DNA of 63,995 bases, counting the filler, from Hausera hauseri (taxonomy: Eukaryota), in NCBI GenBank assembly GCA_046269625.1. It is 12 parts of 12 records of this genome, joined end to end, with 100 filler letters (N's around TTAATTAATTAA, not from the genome) between each part and the next. Parts side by side here need not be neighbours in the genome. Positions count along the whole stretch, not along the records: positions 1 to 4,371 come from JBJURY010612555.1; 11 more parts are not named here. One strand, written 5' to 3'. Below the pieces are notes generated by a model, which was not told where the DNA came from, made no database searches, and was given only the letters and a program-made list of their open reading frames with translations. This document shows positions 1 to 59,925 of the stretch, one piece after another. How positions within the stretch are numbered: position 1 is the first letter of the stretch; each line of letters starts with the position of its first letter. Position numbers and translations under genes: made by a program.

Positions 1-751
1 GAAGTTCGTAAAGAAATTGTCGGCTGCTATGGATCCAGACTCAAAATTTATAAACGAGATGTATGAGTTAGTCTATTTGTTGGTAGAAATGGAGGAGATT
101 AGTGATGAGAGGATGGGGCAATTGATGCCCAAGGTACAGAAAGTAAAAGAAACATGTATTAAAACAAAACAACGAGCAACAAGGTTAAATGAACTAACGA
201 GAGAGCTCGAGGTCTACTGAAACAAATCTGATTTTACTGAATCAGAGATCAAAAATAAACGAGAATTTGTGCAAAAATGGCAAAGAGATGTAATTATTGA
301 ATTAGTGGATTATCACCAAAAAGATTTATCGATTCTAACGAATTAGGCGAGTTACTGACAATGATTCAGTATGCCTATGAAAACGGCATAGGTTTCCAAA
401 CCACGTAAATGAAAGAAATACAACCAAGATTAAAAGAAATTAGTGAAAACGTGAAACGAACGAATACAGCCTTAGTAGACTATGGACTTCGACGCAATAC
501 TTGCCGAAAAACCTGTGACTCCAGTGCAACTAAACTAGATAGAAACTTCTCCGCAGGACAGGAGATTCAATGTGGAGATGCTTCTGGATTCAGCTTTAAA
601 TGAAAAAGATTCAATTGAATTAATTAATTTAAATATTACTGAAAGCAAGTTAAAACAACTTATTCCCACCTTAGTTAAATTATCTAGCGAAAACACGATC
701 TATAGTACGGTGTCGAAACTTTTGATAAGGCAATACGCTAAAATCTTGAGG

Positions 752-992
752 ACTAAACTTGAAGTGACGATAAAAGTAATGGTATCATCCGAATGGATGG
801 CCGAAAAAAAATGCGAATTAACTACATATTCCTATGTAAGAGACGTAAGAGAATGGCTATTGAACAACGGCGGAACAAGCGAGTTAAATTATAGATTTTA
901 CTTTAGAGGTAGAATACTCGACGACCTGGAGCACCTATTAGATATCGTGATTATCCCAAACGAAACAAATCGAATAATATCAGTAATAGCTA
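752..992 (+). pseudogene. Ubiquitin-like (beta-grasp) domain within the retroelement ORF
   Basis: LEVTIKV...SYVRDVREWL...NYRFYFRGRILDDLEHLLDIVI...RIISVI parallels ubiquitin MQIFVK...TIENVKAKI...[21 protein letters not shown]...TLHLV; no C-terminal GG. Confidence 0.65.
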
Positions 993-1707
993 ACGAACAG
1001 ACGAAAGAGGAAGCCACGCGTAATGCTAAGACAGAGCAGTGCGTCGGACAAATCATGGGAGTTCTAGATGCTGCAATGTATTTTGAGTATTTATAAACAG
1101 ATGAAAATACGGAACAATACGACATGAATTTAGTACCATTGGGTGAAACGACCACTAAGGTATTAAAGCCAAAACGTTCAGTAGGTAGGCAGAAGAAAAC
1201 GTCAGAAGAAGTAGATTATAATGGCGAATTGATTAGAGAGCTGAGGCAGATGTTGACTCCGACTCTCAATACAAATAATGAGGAATTAAGCGAGTTAATG
1301 AAAAATTTAATACGAATTGTAAATTATTCAAGCCTTCGAGGTGATGTATTAGATGATAAAGAAAAGATAATATTCGATGCAGCTAAGATGATGCGAAAGT
1401 TCGCGTTTCAAACTATCGAAAAGTAACTTAACCGATGAGTCGGTAATCGATAAGATTATGGTAGAAAACACCAATGAGGAGTTGAGAAAAGTGTTATTAT
1501 ATTTAGCTATTAAGATAAATCCTAATCGAGAGAACGAAATTAATAAGGCTATAAGCTTAGCACGGAAAGCAGCAAGAAGAATGCCTTGCGAAGTAAATTG
1601 GGCAAGACTGTTTGATAAGGAAGAGGACAAACGAAACAACAATAAACTCGACTATATGTTACGCAACCTGAAAACGTCGGACGTTGAAGGTCGAAAGAAT
1701 GAATCAA

Positions 1708-3520
1708 ACTGGCTAATTAACTTGCTCACATTAATGATGCTACTAAAGCATATAGGCGCTGTAACCGTCTATGATTGCGGTAAGTTTAAATTAGGACAGA
1801 GATTCCTTGATGGATCTGGAAGTATGCGAGGATGCCAGACAGCACAAACTGGAAACGAGAGAAAAGTTACTTCCTGTATCAACAAGAATTGGTATCGTTA
1901 GATGGAGTGGAGTGCATGCTGAAACGATCGCGTAGTATTTTCCACTGTGGACTAGTACACGGACACTCCTCCATAGTCAAGCCAACTACTCCTATAATTC
2001 CGATGAATTTAGAGCGTCAACATTGCAAACAAGCTAAGGCAACCGGAAGAATACAATGGGACAGCATGCAATTGGAAATGCAACCCGGAAAAATAATCAG
2101 AGCATACAAAGTAGTAGCTGGAAGGCTGGTTATGCATAGCGGACATTGTAATGGAGCAGAATACGATACCGGAAAAGGATTAGAATCAAACGTGGTAGTT
2201 GTGGATTTCTACGAATAAAAAATGCGATCACAGAAGGTAATGTTCCAGTGTCACGAAGTTATACACAGAATCAGAGATGCCATTTACAAGACGGAACCCG
2301 TGCTTTTAGGAGTTCGGTTATAATATGGGAACGTCCTCGAAGAAATTGTAATTTTATTAAAATTAAAGAACTCAAGTTCAATGAAACTACAGGAAACAGA
2401 TATATGGACAAATCAGAAACTAATTCGAGGACACGTAAGGATGTCAGAACACTCTACACCTACTATACTAATTTCGGATCAGCATGAATTGAAATTTATT
2501 AAAAAAGAGATGATGTCTCGTTGTGATGTAGTGATGTTTACTATGAATTATGAAGCGTTTTCCGTAGCGGAAACAGAAATAAACGGAAAAACTTATAAGG
2601 TAGAAACACAAGATGTACGTATTGAAGATTACCTAAAAAATACAGATGATTTCTACTATAAAGGACAAGTCGGAATAACGGAATTATATCACAAAATGAT
2701 AATTAATGACTGCAAATTGGATATGAAAATCATGAGAACTAAAATGGCGCTTATATATGCAAACCCAGAATTGGCTTCTCCAATAATTCCTGAGAGAAGA
2801 AATTTTCGGTCGAGTAACAGGCGAAGTACCTGTTCGAATGCGAAGAGAGAAGTACCCATCAACGTGCAAAAAAACGTTGCATTCAGGAACGTCCTGTCAT
2901 TTATCAAAATATTCCAAGGTTAGCTACACCGTTGACAAGAGTGTTATTGGATAACGCTACCCAACCGACTATCCTTAAGAATTGTAAGACAAACTTAGGA
3001 GAGCCTATGTTTAGGCGAAGTAAAACAGACTGGGTTAGTTTGACAAATAGAGGCATCACAGCCGCTCCGAATAAATTAACAGGGACTAATCTTGCAAAAG
3101 GGATTACAGACGACAAATTTCAAGACACCTCCTCGAAAGGAATATACAGGCCAAAAGAAATCGAAGCCTTCAGACAATTTCTCGATTTTCCGGGACAGAG
3201 GACACATGAATTAAACCGAGCCATGGCCTCTGTAGTAGACGACACGGATATCAAGCTAAATGGGAATCTTTACTCGACATAAACCATTATCAACGAGTAA
3301 CAACCGAAATACTTTACAAAATGTGGGGAAGACAGGCTGCATCCGGATTCTTAGCGATATATTTCCTGATACAGATGATTAAAGCAGCCATCCAAGCAGT
3401 AGTAAATGGCTATAAGATATTTACTTTGACTGGATTTTCATGTAAAATACTAACGGCGATAATAACGCCCTTTAGAAAATTCTTAAAGGCATATGAAGAG
3501 AATAAATGGAAATCGGACGT
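1708..3520 (+). pseudogene. env: Chuvirus-like (class III, gB-like) envelope glycoprotein, frameshifted
   Basis: Internal signal WLINLLTLMMLLKHIGA then VYDCG; ECMLKRSRSIFHCGLVHGHSSIV; VAG...GHCNGAEYDTGKGLESNVVV; C-terminal MWG...ASGFLAIYFLIQMIK..I..VVNGYKIFTLTGFS membrane region, matching the motif layout of chuvirus-type glycoproteins. Confidence 0.8.
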
Positions 3521-4169
3521 AGAACGCCATGTTGGATATTATCACCGTAAACAAAATGGAAGGCCTACGTTTCCGTACAAGCGGAAATTCATACAGCATA
3601 ATACTCAAAAAAATAATTCAGATGATGACGAGCCTAAGGGAGGAGAAGCACTTTCAGGAATAAACCGATATAAAGCATACTCTGTCATTAAAACGCCGTT
3701 GCCTATGCTACCTCCCACCGCCCCATGTTGCGAAGATTGTGACAAACAATCCATGAGTTCGTATCATACAGAAATCTATATAAGGACAATTAATGTAGAA
3801 GACCTTTATGAAGGAACGAATCGTTATGGGATCTTACGTAAAATGTATACCGACAATCCACGGATAATCCCAAGATGTTGTATTCACCGAGAGAATCTAA
3901 AAATATCGAAGCTAGATCAACGGTTTGGGACAACCCGAGATTAAAAACCTTTCAGAACACCAAACTACATACTAACAATCGAGAACCGCTAATTAGTACT
4001 CACGAAATGGCGGAATTAAGAATCGAAAATAATGAATTATATTCAAAAGAAGAATTAAAACAGCTATCGGAAAACCTAGCATCCGTCCAAGAAGTACGAA
4101 TCAACGGACACAAAATATCAGTGAATAAACGTTCGAAAATAGCATCAAACCGTTTCGGGACAATAATAG

Positions 4170-4371
4170 AAGGAAGACACTTCGCTAAAATAACTATCGC
4201 AGATTGGGACGTTTATGCCTTAATCGATACAAGATCGGAAATGTCTTACATTAAAAATGATTCGATACCTAACACACTACGAGGAAAACTATACCCTCCA
4301 TCCGCGAAAGATCCAGGAAGTACAGGAGCTTTTGGTCAAATGTCAAAACCAATGTTTAAATGGAACCCAGA
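4170..4371 (+). pseudogene. Retropepsin aspartic protease, N-terminal part (active site DTG decayed to DTR)
   Basis: AKITIADWDVYALIDTRSEMSYI in ORF 3875-4423; truncated by contig end. Confidence 0.75.
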
Positions 4372-4669: not shown

Positions 4670-4771
4670 GTGTGTGACTCGGACACCATGCTGGACCCTG
4701 CTTGTTCAGTGGAAATGGTGAAGGTGCTGGAGGAAGATCCCATGGTGGGAGGAGTCGGGGGAGATGTGCAG
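4670..4771 (+). CDS. HAS2: Single internal exon of vertebrate-type hyaluronan synthase 2
   Basis: ttcAG|102 bp|GTac exon encoding [34 protein letters not shown], nearly identical to vertebrate HAS2 ([34 protein letters not shown]). Confidence 0.9.
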
Positions 4772-11634: not shown

Positions 11635-12363
11635 TGGAGTCCATGTTTAACTGCCTGCAGGAGATTTATGTAGTGGACTACATACCTCTCCCTATTACCC
11701 AGATGACAGAGCAGCTTATTCTGCTTTCAAGGGGGGGGGGAGTTTGCTCACCGGAAGGAAAGGCAGCTGTTGATGCCTTGTGCGGATGGAAGCCGGATAT
11801 TCTATATCCACCTCCAGTATGTAGCCCGTATCTCCACTGGGATCCAGGTCCAGGATAGGGATGTCTTCAGGATCCTCAACCTACTTGGACTTACCATATG
11901 GCAATGTGGCGCTCATTGCCCATCCATACAAGTTGTTGGCATCCATGTATGAAATATATGAGGACTTCTTTGGTGAGTCGTATTCAGACATATACTTGTT
12001 ATTGGCCTCACTATACCGGTGAATGGCTTGGCATATTCCCCCTCTAATGCCTCTTTTGCTCATAAGGATCGTGTCGTAATCCTTAATGATTTACCGCCTG
12101 ATACCGGTATAGCGCAGCATTGCTGCCCAGCTCATCCCTGGAGCCGTGAAGAAATGAGCCGCATCCAAAGTATGACTCTTCATTGTGACATCCCTGAAAC
12201 ATTCAAAGATATCTGTCAGCAGCAGCACATCGGTTTTGAGATATATATCATTATATTCCCTTAATGTTCTGCATTGGAATGACTGTTAGACGTTCTGAGC
12301 ATATTGGTAGTTCTAATTATCGATATCTCAATCCGACAGCTGGCTGTACTAGTTCCGTTTGGT
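11635..12363 (-). mobile_element. Polinton/adintovirus protein-primed DNA polymerase B fragment
   Basis: RGIRGGICQ...EANNKYM..YD..K.SSYISYMDANNLYGWAMS (ORF 11881-12063); close paralogue of 21640-22329. Confidence 0.9.
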
Positions 12364-19860: not shown

Positions 19861-19926
19861 GGCTCAACAGGCATAGCGGTTCCGCCTAAAAGCCAAAGAC
19901 AGCGGCCAGTTGATGCTGCTGCATTA

Positions 19927-22329
19927 ATGAAAAAAGTCCGCAAATATGCCACTGATGCAGCTGTGCAAAGAACCATCAAGGAGTTCCTGGAAGATGCAAA
20001 GGAAGAAACAGAGGGGATCCTCCAGGACAATATGACTGAGCTCAAGTCCCTTAAGGTTAATATAAAACTTGAGGCCACAAATGTCAATGTCGATGCCGAA
20101 GAATCAAATAGGGCCTTCAAGACCAAAAATAGGCCCATATTTAAAAACACAAATATAGCTAAATGGCTGCATGAAGAGCATACAAAGCTGATTCGTAAAG
20201 CCGATGAGAGCCAGGATAAAAAGAGTGAATGGGCTCTGTCAACCATCAAGAGACTGCTTACATATGTACACAGATACTCCCCCATGCAAGGCAGTTCATG
20301 TATACAGCTTCCGAAATGTATAGCTAATAAAAAAGTATGCATCAATGTCCTTAATAATGACAACAAGTGCTTCATGTATGCCATTTTATGTAAACTCGTA
20401 CGGGATCAAAAACATGCAGCAGATCGAATTTGGCTATATAAGGATGTGCAGCACAACTATTGCTTCCAGCATATCCCTTTCCTGCCATCCATAGATGAGA
20501 TTGCGAAGGTCAGTCGAATCAACAGCATATCAATTAACATCTTTGGATTGGATGAGGAAGATAAATTCTATCCCCTGTAGATATGCAATGTTGAATTGGA
20601 AGATCATAGGGTGAAAACAGGCATTTCATCTGGATAAAGATGTTTGAGCTTCTAGTCAGATCCCAAATTATGAAACATAAGGAAAGAATCGAAATATGTA
20701 AACGATGCTTGTCTCATTTCAGCGGCAAGTTAACTGTGGAGAAGTTGAAGGAGCACAAGATGTACTGTAACAACAATTACTGTGTAAGGCCAGAATTCTC
20801 CGAGGAAGACTATATTGAATTCAAGGAGTTTGAGAAGAAGATCAAGTTCCCAATAGTTATCTATTGCCACTTTGAGGTTACTCTGCGTCCAGTTCAGAGT
20901 TGCAGCCATAATCCTCAACATAGCAGCACACCGGCATACCAATATCATGAACTCTCATCGTATTGCTTTTATGTCAAAGGACTTGACATTAAACCATTTC
21001 TATTCAGAGGTCCAGGTAAAGTAGCATATTTCATGAAACGACTTGAAGACATGGCTCATAGGCTTGAAAACATTCATCAGCCGCATAAGTATAACATGAG
21101 CATGTCGTAGCAGCAAGAAGATGAATGGCGCAAGGCAACAACATGTTACTTGTGCTACAAACCCTTCACCAAGGATAATCATAAAGTCAAGGTTCACTGC
21201 CATTTTACAGGTGCATATCGGAGCGCAGCATGCAATAACTGCAATCGTTGCTGCCAAATATGTACATATGTGCCTGTAGTGTTCCATAATCTCAGTAACT
21301 ATAATTCCAACTTCATTGTTCGGGAACTGGACAACATTGATGGGAACAGTGATGTGATTCCAAATAGTGAGGAGAAGTACATCACCTTCACGAAGCATGT
21401 GGGCCGCACCAGACTTCGATTCATAAACAGCTTCCGCTTCATGAGCTCGTCACTGGATAGTTTAGTGAAGAACCTCCCTGCAGAAGAACTCAAGGAGACA
21501 AAGCGGTTCTTTCTCACTAACTTTGACCTAGTCAACAGGAAAGGAGTGTTTACCTACGACTACATAACATCATGGGAAACACTGAATGAGACCTTATTAC
21601 CGCCCAAGGATGGCTTTTATAGCCAGTTATCGGACTGTGATATCAGTAATAAGGACTACCAGCATGCTCAGAATGTATGACATGCATTCCAATGCCTAAT
21701 AATAGGGGAATACAGTGATATTTACCTCAAGATGAACGTGCTGCTTCTGACAGACGTCTTTGATAGTTTCGGGGATGTTACGATAAAGAGCCAAGCATTC
21801 TATCTGGCTCATTTCGTTACGGCTCCACGAATAAGCTGGGCAGCTATGCTGAGATATACCGGCATAAGGCTGCAGATCATTAAGGATTATGATATGATCC
21901 TTATGATCGAGAGGCATTAGAGGCGGAATATGCCAGGCCATTCACCAGTATAGCGAGGCCAACAAGTATATGGCCGAATACAACTCAACAAAGGAATCAT
22001 CATATATATCATACCTGGGTGCCAACAACTTGTATAAATGGGCAATGAGCGACCCATTGCCAAATAACTTCAAAAGGGTCAAGAATCCTGAAAACATCCG
22101 TATATTGGACCTAGATCCCAATGGAGATACGGGATACATACTGGAGGTAGACATGGAATATCCGGCTTCTATCCATACAAGGCATTAATAGCTGCCTTTC
22201 CTCCCTGAGAGCATGTCTCTGCCTCATGGAAAGCATAGGAAACTGCTCTGTGATCTGGGTAATAAGGAGAGGTATGTAGTCCACTACATCAATCTCCAGC
22301 AGGCAGTTAGACATGGACTTCGTATTACC
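19927..22329 (+). mobile_element. Polinton/adintovirus protein-primed PolB with endonuclease-VII-like insert, pseudogenised
   Basis: GSSCIQLP...CINVLNNDNKCFMYAI; ICKRCL; IYCHFE (ExoI-like); C..C...KVKVHCHFTGAYRSAACNNCN; VVFHNLSNYN; FINSFRFMSSSLDSL; RKGVFTYDY; ANNLYKWAMS; several in-frame stops. Confidence 0.93.
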
Positions 22330-28830: not shown

Positions 28831-30284
28831 TTTTTTTCACTGCCGGAGAACAGTAGCTCACCAAGAATAATCTTGGTTTGGAGCTATTTGCACTGTTCCC
28901 GGAGGGGAAAACCCCTTTTTATTTGAAATAACATAAAAATACAGATACAACAAAACATCAATACATATACAACAATAAAAAGAAATGCAGTTAATATAGA
29001 TAACACTACTAAAAGTAAAGATATAAGAATAAAAGTTCAGATGCAACAATATGATAGAATGCAGTTAAAGGCAGTATAAGGAAAATGAAATTGTGCTCAA
29101 GAATTGAGAATGGTAGTAGAGAACATAAAAATCCTCCGTAAGACAAGAGAGCCCAGTAGCAGCCGGGCAGTTCAAAATTGGCATGATAACAAAATAGCAG
29201 GCCATAAATTGGCAAAGCAAAATAGAGTGACTTACATTATTAATGATAAAAAGCATACAGATATATATAAATGTAATTACAAAAGAAAGCAGTGTATGAG
29301 AGAGAAGAAAGGTAACTTTGTTTACCAGTGAATAACTAAATTCTTGTGATAAATATATGCACTACAGTTAAAATCAAGTCAGAATAGCAATTCATACAAT
29401 GGAATAGCAGTCAATTACTCTGTCACATTCAGCACTTTGTTCGGCTGAGAAAATAGCAAAAGGCAGAAACACTGAATGGCAGAAATAGAAATCAATGGTT
29501 AAGGAAAAATTAAAACGTTAATAACTTTACAAAAAAGCGAGATTAAAACAAAAAGGCAAAAAAAAATCAAACCTTAACGTCGAAGCTTTTCGGGAGGGGA
29601 AGAACTATCCCCCTAGTCAAAATTAAAAAGTTTTTTTTTCATTTAAACATGAAGTTTATGAGGTATTTAGATAACAAACACAATCACACAGGCAAAAACA
29701 CTGTGCCCACCTATATGCCTTTCAGCACTGGGGATAAAAATATCAGACAGGAGAGAACTGGGCTGTATTTGTGATTCAGACTGTAGTTTAGTTTAAAAGT
29801 AATAACATCCTTGAACATACTCATTTTACTAAACTTTTCTCATTCTAAAATTTGTGTTTCCACAGATTTTTTTCCGTGTTGTTTTTCTGAACAAGGCTAC
29901 ACATACTTGATGTTTTTTAAGACCTTGTCACTGTCTGTCTGTATAATCTGCCAGGATCCATCTCACCATCTGCCTCCTTCTTCATCTGTCTGCTCTTTTC
30001 TTTCACTTTGTTGATGTCATAGTTCCTCTCCAGTATTTTATCAGGGCTGTTTGCATCCGGTGGGCTTTGTCTGTGCATCCCTACATCTCGTCTCGTTAAC
30101 TTCAGTATTTGTTCCCATGTTGCTCTATTTACAAATCTAGTTTAGATTAGAAACACCTAAAGAAANNNNNNNNNNNNNNNNNNNNNNNNNNNNNNNNNNN
30201 NNNNNNNNNTTAATTAATTAANNNNNNNNNNNNNNNNNNNNNNNNNNNNNNNNNNNNNNNNNNNNGCCTTCAACAGCCGGTACA

Positions 30285-33200
30285 GGCAGGCCTAGGAAAA
30301 CGAGTTTACTCACGTAGAGTTATAGCCGGTAAAATATGGCCCGGATATGGTGGAGCATGTAAAGGAGAAAGCATGATGATAAATGGACAAAAAATCCGCT
30401 GTAGTACAAATAGAAGATTTTACTGTCACCATAAAAAATATAAAGTAAACTTTGATGCAATTATAGGAAAAATGTTAAACGCACTATCTTGTACATATTC
30501 TGATGGAGTGTGTACATAGGGGAATCTACCCTAGTTTGGGAAAACACGGTCGTAATATGTCCACTATCTTTCGTTAAACAAGTATCTTTGTACGAAATGC
30601 AAGGTAATTTATATTATGATGACGAATACCAATAACCTGTACATAACTATAATATAAGTTTACCTACCCCACGAACCTTAAAACAGACCACTTCTTGGAA
30701 AGTCTTAATGTCATCCAGAGACAAAGATGGAATCGTACTGGCACGCAAATGAGCAGTATCGACTTGTGGATCGAATGCAGTTTATTCTACATCTTATGAA
30801 GACTTATTCGTAACAAAAGAAACCTTAGGGAATACAGGAAAGCTACCAACTGAAGATATAAAGTGGTACTTATACACGAATAATAAGATAGATTATATTT
30901 ATCACACGGCAAAAAGGAATTTAGTTGAGTTGTATAACATGATGGTATTAAGATATTGTAAAATCACTCAAAAATTGAATCAGAACGACGTAATACTAGC
31001 TATAGAATTTCGTGAACATATTGCTTTAATTATGGGATATCGTCCTGGAACATTTGATAGAGTACAGGGCGAAACATTCCATGTGTATCAATGCCCTCCG
31101 ATGGAGGTAACCCCAATAACAAGCACAAGACAAAATTGTACGAATGAATTAATTGTTCAGTATAATGATAAAAACATAAATAAAATTGGATATGTGGATC
31201 CTATTACTCGAAAATTATTGTTACCTACTGAAATTAGCTTTACAACATGTTATAAATATTTCTATCCAGCTTTTAAGCTTAATGACGGAAGGTGGATTAA
31301 AACACGCCCACCAATTATGATGAACATACCACACACGATTGAGTTATTACCAATGGATAAAGGTATGCAGTTTAAAGTAAATAGAGAACTCCCCACCAGT
31401 GGATTGTATTAATTAACAGACTTGGAAGCAGTAAGAAAACAAGTGTTATTCCAGAATATCCGAAAAAAGGTTACCACAGAATTTGTATATACTGTTACAA
31501 AAGGATCAGGTGGTATACCTAATTATGGAATATTACTCCCAATCGACTATTTAGAAAGAACATCTAAAAAGATCCTTTATGACTTTTGGAATAAATTCCT
31601 TATTTTTGGTCAAGTTATATCTGGAGTCTTTGGGATATATGTTATAATTACTGCCATAATGGTTATATTAAGACAGATAGGAACTGCTAGGAATATAAAG
31701 AAAGTACGTGGTTTTACATGGCAAATTATGTTTGGATGTTTTCCTTCAATGCCTCAATCAGTATTAATGTACTGGCATGCAAAGAAACTTGACAAATTAA
31801 GAAAAGAACTTCGTTTAGCCCCAGAGTTAGAACAACAGTTATAAGCTTTTATTAAGTTAACAGTGGAAGAATATCTAGTTAAATATAAATTATTAAGAAA
31901 GAAAGCTAGACAACACTCCGAGCTAGAAGCGCCCACATACTTCAAACCCGAATTTATTAATGAATTCCCAGAATACCCTGATTACAGAGAAATAAAGGTC
32001 ACGTCCAATGGCAAGATATTTAGATGAATGTACCTGTTTACCAAATACTGCTTATCCACCTAATGTCCTCCGACAATATAATACCGCTAACACTCGACGG
32101 AATAATACAAAATTCATTTTATGACCAAAACCAATACAACAACAGGAAATAACCCTTATGTTCAAGTACTATTTAATGGATTAAACATTATGGTACTACT
32201 AGATACCGGTGCATCCGTGTCAATGATTCGACATTCATACATAACTGACGTTCAAAAGGAAACAATCATGCCTAGTGATATACTAATAGCAGCAGCCAAT
32301 TCTACACAAGTACAATTTCTAGGAAAAATAAACATCAAAATAAGAATCAATGATAATCTACACACCATAACCCTGTTTGTGGTGGATGATAAAACATTGC
32401 CAGTACCCTTAGTAATAGGAATGGACGTATTATCTCAAATCTTCGGACTCTCAATGGATCTATCAACCAAAACCCTTAAATACACGATGACCAACTTGCC
32501 AATTGAGGTAATCAGCATGACCTTGACTCATGACGTTATTATCAAACCACAACAACAAATAGTGGTACTGCTAACGATACCATCGCAATACCACAAGCAA
32601 ACTTGTATGTTTGAACCGAATTTATATAATAATGAAAAATATGAGATCCTACAATATCCCCTATTTATACCAAAAGGAGTGCAAAATTTGAAATTGTCAA
32701 TGGAAAGCATTAATAAAAAGGCAATCAAGTTACGACAAAACCTTAACCTAGGACAATTACAACCGGTTAAAATATGCACAGCAACGTTCTTAGTAGAAGA
32801 TGAAAATATCAAATTTAAAGACTGTGAATTTACTTTATATCAATTAAAAAAACGATTGCAGTTATTCCACAAATATAAAGATATTATAGCTATGAATGAT
32901 AACGATATTGGCAGAACTAACGTAATTAAACATTATATAATCACAGAGAACACCTATCCTATGAAAAAAAATCCGTATAGAATGGCTGAAGTCAAGAAAG
33001 AAGAATGCGATAGACAAATAGCACAAATGGTGGAACACGGTATTATCAGACCGAGTTTCTCACCATGGACATCCCCAGTAGTATTATTGCAGAAGAAAGA
33101 TGGAGCACAACGATTCTGTGTAGATTTTAGAGCAGTAAATAATGTTATGAAGAAAGATAATTATCCATTACCAAAGATAGATGAGATGCTTACAGCTTTG

Positions 33201-34890
33201 AGAAATGCCGTGATATTCACCACCTTGGATTTGCAGTGTGAATTTTTGCAAGTCGAAGTTGCCGAGGAAGATAAGCAAAAAACAGCCTTTACTAGCGGAA
33301 CTAGATTATGGTAATTTAATGTTATGATTTTGGTTTGACAGGAGGACCTGCCACGTTTCAAAGATGTATGAATTTTGCATTGTAAGGAGTAACCTGTTGT
33401 ATGGTTTATATAGACGATGTAATAATATTTTCTGAAAACTTCAAACAACACTTAATGGACAATTTACAAGTATTTGAGAGACTGAAACATGATCATTTAA
33501 AAATCAAATTGAAAAAATGTGAATTTGCTAAAAATACTGTCACTTTCCTCGGACACATACTGTCGAGTAAAGGAATTCAACCTAATTCTAGAAATGTAGA
33601 GAAACTTAAGAAATTAAACCACCCAACTGTCTTAAGGAGTTAAAAAGACTGTTAGGAATGGCCAATTATTACAGGAAATTTGTATATAATTTCGCAAATA
33701 TAGTTAAACCATTAGTAGAATTAGTCAAGAAAGAAACAACATAAAATTGGGAAGAAACACATCAGAGTGCATTTGAGATTTTAAAACAAATTCTTACTTC
33801 ACCTCCAATATTACAATTTCCTGATCCCAAATATCCTTATGAAATAATGACCGATGTCAGCGGTTACGCTATATGAGCAGTCTTAGGACAATGCGTTCCC
33901 GACAGACCTCGTGAAGGAATAATAGCTTGCCTCAGTAAAACGTTAAGTGAAACACAACGTAGATGGTCTACAATCGAGCGAGAATGCTATGTGATAGTAT
34001 ATGCTCTACGATATTTCAGATATTATATAACTGGACGAGAAATAATTTTATACACCGATCAAAAACCCTTACAATAGTTAATGAAACAACGGGATACCAG
34101 CCGAAAATGAATGAAATTGGCTGCAGAAATCCAGGATTTACAGATATCAATAAAATACTGACAAGGAAAAGGTAACGCTAATGCAGATTTCCTATCAAGA
34201 CTTTAGGAAACTGATATTGATCAAGAGTATAACAATCACACCAACTTCGATTACGATGATACGCAGGATTTAAAGGAACATTATTCGCAGAAAGTTCATT
34301 TAAGTATACCCAAAGCAACACGAAAGAAACACACTAAGGATACAGACCAATTTATAAGTATAATTATACAAACACTGAACAAAGATAATCAACGAAATGC
34401 AAAACAAAGTGACTACAAGGATCCGTTAGTGGAAGACATCTTATATGAGTATTACAAAATGATCGACTTAATTCAGACCATGATAGATAAGGTAGACAAT
34501 GCGGAATTCAACGAAGAGATGCATATATTCTTATCCATACCAATTACACACGAAGCTATAGCTAAAGAACAAGCAAAGGATGAGAAAATTTGTAAAATCC
34601 GCCCTAGCCTAAACAAAGAAGGGAGCAAAAATAAATATAAAATGGAAAGGGGAAATATCTACTATCAAGAAAGTGAAGACTTACTCATGGTTGTGCCAAA
34701 AACACATGCGTGCAAAACTTTTATTACATTATCATGACGGACAAATTGGAGGACATCGAGGTTATAAAGCTACATTAGGCAGACATAAACAAAAATATTA
34801 CTGGCCAAAGATAGCGGATGATATAAAAGATTGCTGTACAAATTGTCAAGTTTGTTCAAAGAGAAGAGGAAATTTTCAAGCAAGAAAAAC
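30285..34890 (+). mobile_element. Decayed 'env-before-pol' Gypsy-type retroelement, copy 2 (glycoprotein, TM, PR, dUTPase-like, RT, RNase H, integrase HHCC)
   Basis: Glycoprotein (GETFHVYQCPPMEV...QNCTNEL...YVDPITR; FWNKFLIFGQVISGVFGIYVI) at 30285-31844; PR LLDTGASVS; RT SPWTSPVVL, RFCVDFR, YIDD; RNase H TDVS and WSTIEREC; IN YHDGQIGGH...YYWP...CQVC. ORFs starting 30930, 31422 and 32121 share one frame. Confidence 0.88.
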
Positions 34891-40964: not shown

Positions 40965-41589
40965 GTTATTTTATTGCGACAATTGTTTCAAACTAATAGG
41001 AACAGAATCAATAAACACGATTGAAGGACAGATTTTATGCCCATTGTGCACACTAACTGACGAGGATATAGAGAGGTAGAAAGAATGAACGAGACGACAA
41101 ATGTTAATTAGAGTAAATAAAAGAATACCAAAGAAAATATAAATATTACACAATATCGAAATATTAAATAAATACTGAAGAACGTATTGAATAATACATG
41201 TTTTGTTTAAAAGATCGATGGGGCGATCAAAAAGGCTGAATGAATGGGAAATAGATATATCCAAGTGATTTAGAGAACATAAATACCGTAAAGATAAAAT
41301 ACAATAATGCCAAAATAATACGCTAATTAAAATATTTTTTATAATCTGTTCATTATGTCAGAAATATACAGCAGCAACGGAAGTGGGGCAGAAACAATGC
41401 CCTGTATGCAAATTAATAGCAAAATTGGACACGAACAGGGACCAGTTCGAATGTGGCTACTGCGGAGAGATAATCAGGTTGGACATTGCTACCATAAATG
41501 AGAACTATCTACTCTTTTGCCCAATTTGTGCGTTAACTCCCGCAGACCTTGAAGAACTAGATATATTGTTTGAATTAAATGAATTATGA
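40965..41589 (+). pseudogene. Two paralogous C4 zinc-finger modules
   Basis: FYCDNCFKLI...ILCPLCTLTDEDIE (about 40968-41075) and FECGYCGEII...LFCPICALTPADLEE (ORF 41383-41589). Confidence 0.65.
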
Positions 41590-41712
41590 TAGAACGTGTA
41601 ACATTTAATAAATGTCTAAAGTATAATCACTGAAGTAGAGTTGTTAGTTGGTGTATAAAAATATTATAGAACTACTCCACTAATAAGGCAACTAAATACT
41701 TATATTTTACAG

Positions 41713-41975
41713 ATGCTTGCCACATCTGCTTGGAAGATTTGACAGTGGAGCGAACGACTTTGCCATGCAAACACCACTGTTGCCAACTCTGTATATTTAC
41801 GTGTCTATCAGAACAAACTGCTTGTCCATGTTGTAGAATAACATGCGCCCTTTGTTTAATATGCCTTAATTTGGTGGCGTTACCCTAGCAATACTCCCCT
41901 GTCGACATGCCTTTACCAAGATTCCATAATTAAGCACTTAGAAATCAATCAGTTTTGTCCTTCACGCTACAAATA
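41713..41975 (+). pseudogene. Tandem pair of RING fingers
   Basis: CHICLEDLTVERTTLPCKHHCCQLCIFTCLSEQTACPCCR, then frameshifted CLICLN...ILPCRHAF.QDSIIKHLEINQFCP; preceded by acceptor-like ttttacAG. Confidence 0.75.
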
Positions 41976-42347
41976 CGCGAATTTTTATTTTCTGGTAGAA
42001 CTGATTATTTACGTGGATACCGAAAACCGAGCGTCAATAAGCCTCATAATAGATGAAGACGAGGACGAATCGCCGGACAAATGGAGAAACCCCAGGCTAT
42101 TCATGATTACTGGCTTATAAATAAGGAGATTTTTCTGTATAACCAATTATTGTATATCTAAATTGTCAATAAAAATTAATAAAGTCGCCTTGCTCTTGAA
42201 AGGATTTAATGTCGATTTTGTTAAGATTTTCCTTGCCTATTATGCAGAAGGCATACCTTATCATATGGATTTCAAGTCCGTTTCCACTCCCGTCAAATCA
42301 CCTACTCAACCTATAACCCACAAGGAGCATTCGCACCCATCGGAACA

Positions 42348-42529
42348 CCTTGTGCAATCTGCTTGAACCCCTATTCAATGGATCCTGTGGAACGGACCAC
42401 CTGTAAACATAAATTTTGCCGATCTTGCTTAAAAGAGTGGTTCCTAACATCAACTTCCTGTCCGTTATGTCGAGCGTACAATAGGCTATTTCGAAGTGGA
42501 AATGAATACTTTACTATTCGAAAATTATA
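42348..42529 (+). pseudogene. RING finger (C3HC4)
   Basis: PCAICLNPYSMDPVERTTCKHKFCRSCLKEWFLTSTSCPLCRAY. Confidence 0.85.
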
Positions 42530-49231: not shown

Positions 49232-50695
49232 GTAGTGATTTTCTGATTGACAGCCGTGCTGGAAGTGTTCTCAGCGGAAATTGTGTGATCACGTTTAGTG
49301 ATGTGAGTATTTGGGGCCGGATTATTGTCGACGGCACTAGTGATTGTATGCACCGGATGAATATCTATGGTTCTGTCCGAAAGGGACGTGTGTGCGGTAA
49401 CCGCTGCCACCATTTTAGTAAATCTATTCTTTACCAAAAAATAACACGTGAACAAGACAAGAAATAAACAAAATAAATAATGTTTGGAAAGTTTATTTAT
49501 GTCCATAGGTTCATCCAGGGAAATGTACGATTCGTCCGTGTCCGTGGAAGATAAAGCCGGGTCGTTTCTGGAACCGTGTCGGAAATCTGTCGGAGCATCG
49601 TCCGAGCCGGAATCGGTTGGTACTGTTCTTGTCATCTGTCGTCGGCGACGACGACACGGTATTGGCGAGTCCTGCGAGCTTGCGATCCCCCGACGTTTCG
49701 GGATTAGCCGACTCTCGGAGGGAGCCAATGACTCGTACAGTCGGTCGGTTGCTGTCATCAACCGCAGGAATATAGGGAGGAAGACCGCCGAGTCAAATAG
49801 ACGACGGTTGCCTCCATCCTGGTAGAACCGGTTGAGCAGGTTGGCTGGAAGAGAGTAAGGATCGTCTCTTTCCAGGCTGACCAGGTGCTTTATGAAGCGA
49901 CTCCTTTGAAGGAGTTCCCGTACCGTCAAGAAGTCCGAATAGGACCGATACGGGGTTCGCTTGTGAGTCTGTCGAGGTTTGCTGACTAAAGCAGCGTGTC
50001 TCTCGTTTGGGCAGGACTGTTCCTGACCGGTGGGAGTACTTGGAATGCTATCTTGGTTCGGTATTCCCGTCGGTTTCGACCGTTTAGGGATACGGTATCC
50101 TGATGGCAAGTTGGTCATCCCATTGATTTCGGTTGTGGAAGTGACTGGAGTGCCTAGCTTCGGCGTTATCGGTTTGTCGGTTTTCGGTTTGGTCGATTCA
50201 CAACGGTTGTTTACAGCATCGGATAGTGCGGCTGTGTTGTTTTTCCGGACTATGGGTTCTCCGGGTTTCGCTATAACTGCAACGTGGTTCCTTCTTTGGG
50301 TTCCTGTCATCGCCTTCATGTTCTTGGTATCGTGACTTGGTACGGACATCGTTCGCTTATTTTTATTCACTGCGTTTTCTTTTTTTTTGAATTATTCTGT
50401 TCAATCTCTGAACTGTGGATTCAAACAAAAGATTAAATCCACAGATCTTGATTGTTTTTTTATTTGTTACAAGTGCTGGTCGCTTCAGCACTTGTAATCA
50501 TGATTTTATTTTTTCTATTTGTATTTTTGTATTTGGGATTTTTAAATTTTTTGTAGTTTCGTGGGTTTTATTAATTTGAACATGAATCCGTGATTTTAGC
50601 TTTTGTTTGCTGTTGGTTATATTTTTAAATTTTAAGATTGGGATTTTTAATGTAGGCGAATTAAGTTTGGTATTTTTGTAAGGTGGAACCTTACA
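49232..50695 (-). mobile_element. Long LTR-like sequence containing an ORF of at least 380 codons (50370 to contig end)
   Basis: Minus strand purine tract then TGTAAGG; ORF with basic/disordered N-part, conserved RTPYRSYSDFLTVRELLQRSRFIKHLV core and hydrophobic YLFCLFLVLFTCYFLV; homologue at 39374-40058. Confidence 0.7.
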
Positions 50696-54595: not shown

Positions 54596-57500
54596 ATTTT
54601 ATTATCGGTGCTGATACATTCGCCTTTTGATCTCGTCAAAAGCATCCTGGTTTTCTTCTGTCCACTACCATTTTTGGTTCTTCCTTAATAGCTTATATTA
54701 AGGCTGGTTAATTTCTGCAAAGTCAGCTATAAAGGTAGCACAAAATCCTCTCAATCCTAACCAAGTTTTCATCTCGTGCACGTTAGTTCGAGGGGGATAT
54801 TCCAATATTTTAAATATTAAATCAGGGCTGGTTGATATACCTTGGTGAGAAACAACAAATCCAACGTATCTAACTTCCTTCTTGCACCATTCATATTTTC
54901 TCGGATTTAACTTTAATGTTGCGAGCCTGATGCGATCAAATACTTCTTTTAAATCTACTAAATGTGCCGACCATGTCTTAGATGCGATTAGAATGTCGTT
55001 AATGTATGATAATCTTCGTACTCCTTTTAATATTAACGAATAAATTCTTGGAAGAAGGTGGGTGCTGTTTTCAAACCAAACGGCACACGTGTAAATTGAT
55101 AAACCCCTGTATGCGTCTTAAACGCGGTTTCCAACCGATCTTCTTCAGCCATGGGGATTTTCCAAAAACCACTTTGTAAATCTAACGTGGTACAGTATTT
55201 ACAATCTTTCAGTTCGTCTATAATGTCTCGTATTTGAGGTATCTGATAGGCATGATTTATCAAATGCTTATTTAATGTAACATAGTTAACACACAAACGG
55301 TATTTTGTCGTTTTAGCTTTTTTGGCCATAACTATTGGAGAGGGCCATAGCGATTGACTAGGCTCTATGATACCCTTGTCTAATATTGCTTGAATTGGCT
55401 CCTCAACTTCCTTTTGTAGTGCTTTTGAAGGGGGTACCATTTGGTATAGGTTGCCGCAATAAATCTATTTCTTTTCCTGTTAATGGGTCGATCATAAATG
55501 ATAGTTTGAATTTAACGAAATTGGTTCGTCCGATGTCCGTTTTATCTTTGGCAAAAATGTCCAAAATACTCAAAAATAAGATCGGAAAAGTTTTCTAGAT
55601 AACCATCTGATAGATTTTTCTTAGCTTTGCGAGAACGACATCAAGTTCATCTTCATCCTTTTCTTTTCCTTTGATTGATATGGCTGCGGTTTTACTATTG
55701 TATTCGTCATGAAGAATTGTTTCAAGGGCCCGTCCGAGTTTCATCTTTGTGAATAATGTGACGTATTTAAGGGTCGGATTTAAAACTTCAATAGGGATAG
55801 TTCCTTCGACTACGTTAACACAATACTGTGGCAGTATAAGCCCATTTTGAATAATTTTCGGTACAAACTCGATTATACTATTATCTGAGAAGACCGTTCT
55901 GGCATGTATGACCATTCTAGAATTGGGTGGTATTTTCTAAACGTGTCCTACGCAGATGTCTGCTTTATCGTAGGTAAGAGGAATATTTTCATTATTAAGG
56001 CAAATTGATTCAGATTGTAGATTTATGTGTACACCTTGTAAATTTCGTAACACGTTCATCTTTAGGATGCATCTTGGATCTAGGGTGGTAATTACATCTA
56101 AGGTTATTTTGAATCTTTTTCCACAAATCCATGGTTCGCATTTCCAATATCCATAGGGTTTGCTGCATTGCTGGAAGGCTGAATTGGTACCATGTGAGTC
56201 TTTGGTGGATAATTTTATTTGAGATTGTAATTCTTCTGGAATTGCCTTTTTCGCTATTAACGCTACATTAGCTCCGGTATCCGCCATAGCATTTAAATTA
56301 AAAGTACCAAAATGAACTGTTGTGTGGGGTCGATTATCTCTTAATAATTCGTGAAAAGTTAATACATCGTTGTAATCATCTATATGAGGTTCCATGAAGG
56401 TCTAACTGGCTGAACAGTATCTAGTTGTTCCGTTAGCTAATATGACCGTCAGACTTTCCACTGATTGTGTATCATTTTCTGACCCTTTTGATTTGTTTTT
56501 GAGTTCAGTCAAATCTGGGTAACAGCTTAAATATTTTGATGTTGTTTGTTGTACATTACTGGATTCAGTTGTTGGAATTATATATTGGGATTTCCTGTCA
56601 GGTTGAGCTTCTCTTGATCTGTTTGCTGGATGGTAGGGTACCTGCGGTATCATGCCCAATTTAGGTGATATTGGTAACGTTACTCGATTATTTTCCATAT
56701 TTCGCGTAATAATGGATTGACGTATCTCGTCCTGAGAGTACTTGGGTAAGTTACATAATTTTATGTAATCTTCTTTCTTTGCGTAAGGATCTGTTAAGTA
56801 TTTCAGATTAGATAATTTACAAATAGGCATTGTTTTACTCTCATATGATGCAGCAGGTAATTTTTGCATATTGTTTCTCTTTGGTTTCATAAATTTGATT
56901 TTTCTCCTCTTATCCTTAGGAATTCCTGTTGTGGAATATTATCCAGGGGTATTACCGTCATCTGAACTTGATGAGGTATCCTTTGGTAATAGTTTCTACT
57001 ACTTGTAGTAAACATGTTTTTCTAATTTACCTCGCCATTGTTTCTCATGGTAGGCTTTGATGAATTTGCCAATCAGAGAAAATAAAACGCCTATTATACT
57101 CAACGATAATCCCGTTAGATGGTAAATCTCATAAGCATTTAGCACAGAGTTGATACAGACATTTAAAGTTTGTATAATAAAATAGATTGACAGAAATCTT
57201 GATGCTACTTGGCCGAATCTTAAGAATCCTCCCCACATTTTGTATCACAAATTCGAGACGATTTTGGTATAGGCATCCGGCGTCCATAATCGATCCTATT
57301 TCCCTTCTCCTGCTGTGTTGTCAATTACGCAGTGTATTCCTCGATTTACTATTTGTTCTCTCTGTCTCGAATATGCCAAAAACTTTACAAATGAATTGAT
57401 GTCTTTCTTGCTATACAATGCTGACTTGGATACGTCAGTAAACATGTTGGTTTCAGTCGCATGTTTCAGATTTGGCATCGTTAATTTATTTGGTTTTTCT

Positions 57501-59530
57501 TTGACTCTATCGCGATCCTGTAGTATAATCAAAAGATCTTGGTTATCATACTTGATTAATGGCTTATTTAGTGCTGAACAATTTTGGATTTCAGTAGGTA
57601 TTGTATGTGATGCCAGAAGCACTCTGAGGATTGGTTGCACGTATCAAATTTCTTCATTATATTTGACAAGTATTTCAGAGTAACACGGGGAACCCGTAAT
57701 TAATGGTAATTCTAAACGTTTACATATATATGTATGTAGCACCTCTCCTAAAATCTGCCCTGGATTCCTTCTCCAAATGGGAAAATTATCGTTATCATTT
57801 CCGAGTTAGACGCATAATTGGCTAAGCGATTTCTTAGAGTTTCAAAGTTAACTTTGCAAAAGTTTTGAATTGTTTCAGAATATATTTTCTCAATTGTTCT
57901 ATGAATCAAATAGAACAAAAAATCATCTCTGTTTGCAATATAATCAGCAATGTTTACTAACTGAGCCTTATTAGTAGGCGAATTATCAGCACCTTTGATT
58001 TCCTTTTCTGATATAAAATGTTTGTCGTAATTCGTACTAAATACTTGTTATCCACACTTTGTAATCGCATCTTGTTGATTAAATTTGACTCCTCCTGTAA
58101 TATCCTTGGATATTNNNNNNNNNNGTTTTTACTTTGGGAATGACTTGAATATTAGTATGTTCAGAAGTGGTCTTATAGTGCCGTGAGTAACGTTTTCCCG
58201 TAGTTACATTAAATTCTCCCCTTCGTATTTGTACTAATGTACAATCATAACTTGTTGGCAATTTCCAAACTATTGTGGATGTTTTTAGCTTGCAGAAGAA
58301 TGCGTCCATCATTGTATTTATACTAGTTTCAAAAATATAAGTATTATCCTTAATCTCAGCTTATATTGGTCGTGTACTACAATACTTGCTTCGACACCTT
58401 TACCGGTATCAAAATTTCCTTCTCTACAATTACCTTTTTCATCTTTATAACCAGCGATCCATATTTCTTGTTGGGTTACTTGTCCTCTTATTGAGGTCAA
58501 CAAAATGTCATCCCATTTCAACTGCAGGGTTTCTCCCGCATCTCTACAATATGTAAGGTTAACTGACACATATTTAGGCATATTGGTTGGCTTAATATAA
58601 GAGTCATGATCTAGGTGACCGCAGTGAGAAATGGTACGGGATACGCGCAGTGAAAATTCCACTCCTTTTATGTGTAACATAGTTTTGTCGTAGTAAATAT
58701 ACAAATTTTGCGTTTGAGTCTCCAATTTCCTTGGAAGGGCATCCGAACAAGATTGTAGATCCATCAAGGAGTAGTAGTTTCCCCGCATATATTTGGTCGC
58801 AATAATATGCCAATATAGTTCCTGTCCTTTAAAAATTTGTGAATAGTACCAACAAGAGTAGAATAAATTGTAAAAATGTTCCGTTATGTTTTACGCCATC
58901 ACTCTTCTGGACTTCTTCCTGTATTTGATTTGACATTTTCTCCATAATAATGCGAACTATTTCTTCTTGAGATGCATTTTGAGTTATTTCAAATATAGCT
59001 TTCTCTATGTTTGTCTGTTCTACTTCGGATTGCATTTCCTTCCCATTTTGTAAAAACAAATCACTCCATTTTCTTTACAGCTGAATAACAGATTTGCTGG
59101 CGAGAATTATTTTACCGGTTGTAATTTTAAATTCGGCTTTGCTGGGTGTTTCTAATATCAGTAACAATGTCACCTTTTCGAGTATTAAGCGGGATAGTGT
59201 TTCGAGGATTAGCTGTATAATATCATTATTGTTTAAGTTTTCCCATTCTGAATTTTTCTTAAGAATTTTTATAAATTTTAGTTGCTCTTTAACTCGTTTC
59301 TTCCATTTTTAGATCCAGAGTTTATTGGATCCTTTCCAGTCTCTATGTAATATATTTCTCTACCTAGTTTCTTCACTTCTTTGTATTCTTTATACAAGTT
59401 TGGGGTTTCATAATCCATCATTTGAGTAACAAAATTCCTGACAATAGTTATTTATATAGAATAAGTAAGTAAATCAGTTCAGATTTTATTTAAACGTGTT
59501 TGAAATTGCACTAGTTTTGGTGTCAATAAT
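54596..59530 (-). mobile_element. Decayed 'env-before-pol' Gypsy-type retroelement, copy 3 (helical region, signal, glycoprotein, TM, linker, PR, dUTPase-like, RT)
   Basis: FLQFILLLLVLF..AYYCD; VSRTISHCGHLDHDS; GNCREGNFDTGKGVEASIVV; WGGFLRFGQVAS TM; MADTGANVA; RT SLWPSPIV, YRLCVNY, LDLQSGFW, VPFGLKTAP. ORFs starting 59059, 58813, 58312, 57640, 57238, 56890, 56395 and 55915 share one frame. Confidence 0.9.
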
Positions 59531-59574
59531 CTTTTAAATATATCTCATTACTGTATACACTGAACTGGCAGCAC

Positions 59575-59825
59575 AAAACTTGGCCGCGTTGACGCTCGAT
59601 CCCGGCGCGGTCTCGTATCGAGCGGAAATCAAGTCGTGTGTGGCACTGCGGCAGTCCTTCATCGACGCGAAGGACCAACTTCCCGAAGTGTCACGGCAGC
59701 GCGACGCGATGCGGATGTTGATCGATCGTGAATTGGCCATACTGCGTCCCGTTTGGACTCACGACGATTTGCGGGCCTTCTCCGTGGACATGGCCACGCG
59801 GGCGGAGATTGACCGCCTGATCAAG
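59575..59825 (+). other. GC-rich coding-like fragment of different composition fused to the AT-rich element
   Basis: Abrupt composition shift near 59575; open frame to contig end; no motif recognised. Confidence 0.5.
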
Positions 59826-59925
59826 NNNNNNNNNNNNNNNNNNNNNNNNNNNNNNNNNNNNNNNNNNNNTTAATTAATTAANNNNNNNNNNNNNNNNNNN
59901 NNNNNNNNNNNNNNNNNNNNNNNNN

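Follow-up and report, generated by a model that had tools for sequence, protein, structure and literature searches.

The segment at 752..992 of the analyzed window, a 63,995-nucleotide stretch of Hausera hauseri DNA assembled from 12 short contigs with N linkers between them, is under purifying selection and is real coding sequence of a retroelement, not a private insertion. Sequence comparisons, together with low-confidence structure models, make it likely that this segment folds as a diverged ubiquitin-like (beta-grasp) domain. The explanation that best accounts for our observations, and that we regard as probable, is that the segment represents a selected, integral part of the pre-env region of an abundant gypsy-type element, likely ubiquitin-like in fold, which would serve as a docking module in the cytosol.

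The first contig (positions 1 to 4371, hereafter contig 1) is a broken fragment of a gypsy-type retroelement in which env lies ahead of the protease, in the order domain, signal-like stretch, env, protease (Table 1). Four env pieces between 1811 and about 3510 match PF24664 in the order of the profile (E 1.2e-10, 1.1e-3, 5e-10, and 1.5e-9), and a hydrophobic stretch near 3350-3500 provides the membrane anchor, such that the signal, ectodomain, and anchor of a gB/chuvirus-type fusion glycoprotein are all found. The protease call is based on similarity to 55940-56401 of the window, which itself matches RVP at E 2.9e-5. Neither a Gag capsid nor a zinc knuckle was recognized in the region upstream of the domain-bearing ORF, and length differences occur near 483-550 among contigs aligned to this element. 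Single-sequence searches of Pfam and the PDB with the region between the domain and env returned no family or structure matches. A WARL motif near 1600 had prompted a Bcl-2-like reading of that region, which found no support in searches; a capsid p24 match in the same searches (E 1.1) is within noise.

Table 1. Coordinates of the contig 1 element and of the other env-bearing elements in the window
Feature	Position	Strand	Remarks
Upstream part of the same coding region, broken, charged, probably helical	2..538	+	Runs off the left end of the contig
ORF piece bearing the domain	539..1096	+	First ATG 578; stop 1094-1096 absent from most aligned contigs
Likely ubiquitin-like (beta-grasp) domain, integral, without C-terminal Gly-Gly	752..992	+	Similarity leads, models, selection
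Core motif RFYFRGRILDD	893..925	+	Tyr at 899-901 in the register of ubiquitin Ile44
Region between domain and env, probably helical, in two frames (1097-1426; 1392 onward)	1097..1712	+	
Hydrophobic signal-like stretch before the env ectodomain	1713..1763	+	Kyte-Doolittle mean 1.76
Broken gB/chuvirus-type envelope glycoprotein, several frames, membrane anchor at end	1764..3510	+	PF24664 Monjiviricetes_fusion
PTAP late-domain-like motif behind the env anchor	3714..3725	+	One short motif in the coding frame
Start of retropepsin-like protease	4170..4369	+	blastp E 1.9e-4 to 55940-56401; contig ends here
Second gypsy-type family, gB/chuvirus-type env, protease, RT	30266-34890	+	Contig begins inside env
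Third gypsy-type family, gB/chuvirus-type env, protease, RT	54596-59825	-	Contig ends at about the domain position

Selection was assessed on contigs of X1, the one public run found to contain the stretch, which may be the source of the window itself and thus does not provide independent support. No RNA dataset was listed as containing the stretch, a result that carries no information about expression. Across the full 30 bins of contig 1, 12,463 X1 contigs aligned, 9,930 of them less than 95% alike, which fits a large, divergent, and abundant repeat family; the summed depth is not a copy number. The interval 722-1021 is covered by 875 aligned contigs with no indel rows and one low-depth joint, and the contigs listed cross both edges of the segment. 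We examined 40 of 42 difference rows and, using a 90% cut of our own choosing, classified 28 as variable in the family and 12 as nearly private to the contig 1 copy. In the frame of the ORF, 22 of the 28 family-variable rows are synonymous, versus an expected share of 0.29 (binomial P 9e-8, with rows that are not independent events); the corresponding counts for the other two plus-strand frames are 9 and 2. Among the differences nearly private to the contig 1 copy, 1/12 is synonymous, and this copy is decaying. Within 881-931, the stretch with the core motif, none of the rows listed (40 of 42) is nonsynonymous. No direct repeat longer than 5 nt flanks the segment, and the base composition shows no step there. 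Because of the synonymous excess and the absence of indel rows, flanking repeat, and compositional step, the segment behaves as a constrained coding part of the family. A separate insertion with its own TSD, which the initial annotation had named as one of the outcomes that would overturn its reading, is contradicted by the lack of such a repeat and by the family-wide presence of the segment.

The initial annotation had placed the core motif in an ORF at 572-1096, in frame with flanking ORFs and one frameshift away from the env signal peptide. The motif is indeed present and the ORF exists, but it spans 539-1096, and position 572 is not its start codon. The frame relationship stands inasmuch as 2-220, 539-1096, and 1097-1426 are all in frame 2; nevertheless, 11 frame-2 stops lie between 218 and 536, and therefore, in the contig 1 copy, no uninterrupted frame connects 17-220 with the segment. 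The piece that carries the signal-like stretch (1392-1901) is one frame over, as had been proposed. Among the aligned contigs, 12 length-difference rows were found at or near frame junctions, including near 1396 and 3847. Together with the absence of the stop at 1094-1096 from most of these contigs, they suggest, short of proof, a single long frame that starts upstream of the domain and continues across env as far as the protease. Only 11% of the depth is concerned in the row near 1396, and an ATG at 1458 could begin a separate env ORF.

Similarity to ubiquitin was detected by several methods, all below their usual thresholds. In a Pfam search with the segment, ubiquitin was the sole match (E 0.18), and since its 12.1 bits fall short of the curated cut-off of 25.4, the segment is not filed as a member of PF00240. 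When the ORF was scanned with Pfam in nine sliding windows, two of them also matched ubiquitin. Of 47 unrelated 80-residue control windows, 13 gave Pfam matches at E 0.2 or better; 4 to 6 were set aside as real, leaving 7 to 9 with spurious matches, none of them to ubiquitin; the E value of the segment falls within this noise. An ESM search with residues 65-160 returned four named family sets, all ubiquitin or Rad60-SLD (0.87-0.90), with 122-134 of 256 shared features versus 170 typical for true family members; with the whole ORF the score was 0.79 or less. A comparison with 82 ubiquitins taken from viral contigs gave a local score of 34 against one of them, over 55 gapless residues with 9 identities, which was reached by 78/5000 shuffles and exceeded by 6/1086 ORFs of the window. 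An HMM built from the same 82 proteins scored the segment at 2.4 bits.

The pattern of residues expected of a beta-grasp core was found in a gapless register with ubiquitin 16-62, in which 11 of 12 hydrophobic positions and both glycines are matched. No other register among 18,648 in the window has both glycines along with 11 or more of these hydrophobic positions, and none of 20,000 shuffles produced one in this post-hoc test; a summed form of the pattern test was unexceptional (26 registers; 3777/20,000 shuffles). Two single-sequence AlphaFold runs yielded strand-strand-helix-strand in the expected order, with pLDDT of 44-46 and an unfolded C-terminal third. When both low-confidence models were used for fold searches, no structure was matched at E 0.001 or better or with a Z of at least 5, a result that speaks neither for nor against the fold. 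The similarity leads respond to the same residues and hence are not independent of each other. A phmmer search of the PDB retrieved no ubiquitin-like chain, and word-based searches with the ORF, an env piece, and the segment retrieved no homologues. HMMER over 1.84 billion representatives gave four matches, all to long repeat proteins with summed scores that we judged spurious, and searches for the locus in metagenome and viral contigs found no homologue.

A SUMO/ubiquitin-like domain ahead of this type of env has already been published for the planarian Burro/GYPSM1 elements. In these giant gypsy-like LTR retrotransposons, a single giant ORF encodes Gag, a Ubi2/SUMO-like domain (PF11976), a BCL2-like domain, and an in-frame mononegavirus-type env, followed by pol; they exceed 25 kb, possess LTRs and a Gag with CCHC knuckles, and carry a dUTPase-like domain between protease and RT (Arkhipova and Yushenova 2019, PMC6431247). 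The contig 1 element shares with Burro a domain, here likely ubiquitin-like, upstream of a mononegavirus-type env, an env upstream of the protease, and very many copies, some decaying with stops and frameshifts. Unlike in Burro, no BCL2-like match was found between domain and env in single-sequence Pfam and PDB searches, which are weak. Gag, LTRs, RT, and the full size of the element lie beyond the ends of the 4371-nt contig. On balance, we favor a Burro-like polyprotein in which the domain is continuous with env, although the contig 1 copy is broken and, in the two other env-bearing elements, the stops that separate env from the protease are ambiguous.

Gypsy elements with the order GAG-ENV-POL and an HSV/gB-type env have been reported from Nematoda, Bryozoa, and Platyhelminthes (Chary and Hayashi 2026, PMC13524379). 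The contig 1 element similarly has a gB/chuvirus-type env before pol, and differs from these intact errantiviruses in that its copy is broken; "ubiquitin" occurs 0 times in the available main text and seven supplementary files of that article, long cells excepted. Thus, the contig 1 element resembles Burro and the gB-type errantiviruses in layout, and its membership in Burro is not established. Bdelloid LTR retrotransposons, like this element, combine a gypsy-type backbone with family-specific cargo, there in the form of captured accessory enzymes encoded by a separate ORF3 behind pol (PMC5408684); the available text of that article contains "ubiquitin" 0 times. Troyka elements were set aside as a comparison, being devoid of env (PMC12440569). 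A literature search on ubiquitin-like domains in retrotransposons returned only unrelated work; its wording misses Burro ("Ubi2/SUMO-like"), and so absence from print is not implied. As for integral ubiquitin-like domains in general (PF00240 and PF11976, Rad60-SLD), the segment shares with them the hydrophobic-core register, the two glycines, a length of about 80 residues, and the lack of a C-terminal Gly-Gly; it departs from them in scoring below the curated thresholds, in its Tyr at the Ile44 position, and in having a fold that is only predicted.

The main challenge to a ubiquitin-like fold is that the element might instead conserve here an alpha/beta domain of a different fold, whose likeness to ubiquitin arose by chance. 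The Pfam, ESM, and HMM scores are all subthreshold, the pairwise score is matched by some shuffled sequences, and the AlphaFold models are unreliable, as this explanation would predict. We nevertheless consider it unlikely, if worth keeping in view, because the hydrophobic-plus-glycine register is unique in the window, Pfam and ESM both name the ubiquitin clan, the order of secondary-structure elements agrees with that of ubiquitin, and Burro offers a precedent. The initial annotation had also proposed a module that is integral to its protein rather than conjugatable, noting the absence of GG. The ORF contains a single GG, which is internal (869-874), and no C-terminal Gly-Gly. Without a terminal Gly-Gly, ubiquitin-type conjugation or cutting is impossible. 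The integral module is the best reading in view of this feature, the selection, the family-wide presence, and the precedent, while the fold itself is unproven. As the domain precedes the signal-like stretch, it would be cytosolic, and may dock host factors there instead of serving as a conjugated tag.

What such a docking module might do can be narrowed by the Ile44 position. The residue in that register is a Tyr with no variant row among those listed, and the equivalents of L8 and V70 have no confident alignment. The initial annotation had invoked a budding or proteasome-binding function, i.e., a built-in ubiquitin that recruits ESCRT or binds the proteasome. Ubiquitin fused to Gag can indeed substitute for a late domain, in a manner that requires L8 and I44 (PMC2958808), and the element has an env, with a domain that would face the cytosol; the Tyr is at odds with that requirement, however, and the PTAP behind env would be a conventional ESCRT handle. 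These two features weaken the proposal, which we regard as doubtful, and because of them we prefer a docking or decoy role over a built-in budding signal. Our leading single guess, offered tentatively, is an adaptor or decoy for host ubiquitin/SUMO-pathway proteins that would bind its partners elsewhere than at the canonical Ile44 patch. It also seems improbable, to about the same degree as the budding function, that an env-before-pol gypsy lineage outside planarians independently captured the domain as a cytosolic ubiquitin mimic whose remodelled Tyr patch steers host trafficking or budding. Pestivirus polyproteins carry ubiquitin insertions, and the location of the domain inside a probable polyprotein might similarly point to a cleavage signal for host deubiquitinases, or else the segment could be a separate insertion in the contig 1 copy. 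This reading is largely refuted and very improbable, given the missing C-terminal Gly-Gly, the family-wide constraint, and the absence of a target-site repeat and of a compositional step.

The domain had been described as possibly lineage-specific as it was not recognized in another copy. The env pieces of the two other env-bearing contigs are about 27-39% identical to that of contig 1 (30-39% for the third element), and therefore these contigs represent other families, not copies. Both elements have RVT_1 and an unassigned insert between protease and RT; one other contig has a dUTPase match at E 0.017, and a three-sequence profile found no dUTPase in the PDB. In contig 1 the signal-like stretch follows the domain at a distance of 721-961 nt. 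At an equal distance in the third element, about 59600-59840, there is GC-rich DNA (GC content rising from 0.22 to 0.58-0.61), and the interval extends past the contig end. The claim of lineage specificity has no basis, since the third element is cut off there and the contig of the second begins inside env; Burro elements, moreover, carry such a domain. The contig of the third element closes with an abrupt switch to GC-rich sequence (59525-59825, 0.47-0.61), either a foreign insert or a misassembly. This element also has a YPDL late-domain-like motif behind env in the coding frame (56510-56521, minus strand). With the PTAP of contig 1, two of the three elements that bear an env have such a motif following it; both motifs are short and may be due to chance.

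If the fold is true, a family with measured purifying selection joins the short list of retroelements with ubiquitin-like cargo before env, which would suggest that the layout of Burro is more than an isolated case, and the small, unbroken 80-residue domain would be suited to binding assays. The element belongs to a kind of system that is already known, and the functional roles are proposals.

Several other features of the window were noted. A hyaluronan-synthase-like exon (4670-4771, plus strand; PDB HAS1, E 1.9e-7) lies beside a GT microsatellite. Its contig also carries a gypsy element and an intron-poor BROMI gene, and may be chimeric or derive from mixed DNA. Neighboring contigs carry divergent, intron-poor PCF11, RIO2, and BROMI genes, which points to an animal as the host. 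In the contig at 39374-43622, several RING-like ORFs rich in Cys and His (41308-42527) are broken, and BIR is weakly matched (E 0.028); the ORF adjoining them resembles 49234-50391 with 54% identity. RING and BIR are cargo of Burro. A 15-nt tandem repeat makes up a whole contig (12464-17457) and leaves long frames open on both strands. Finally, fragments at 19861-22329 (plus strand) and 11745-12348 (minus strand) are common to two contigs and, judged by eye, resemble a Polinton/Maverick-type protein-primed DNA polymerase.
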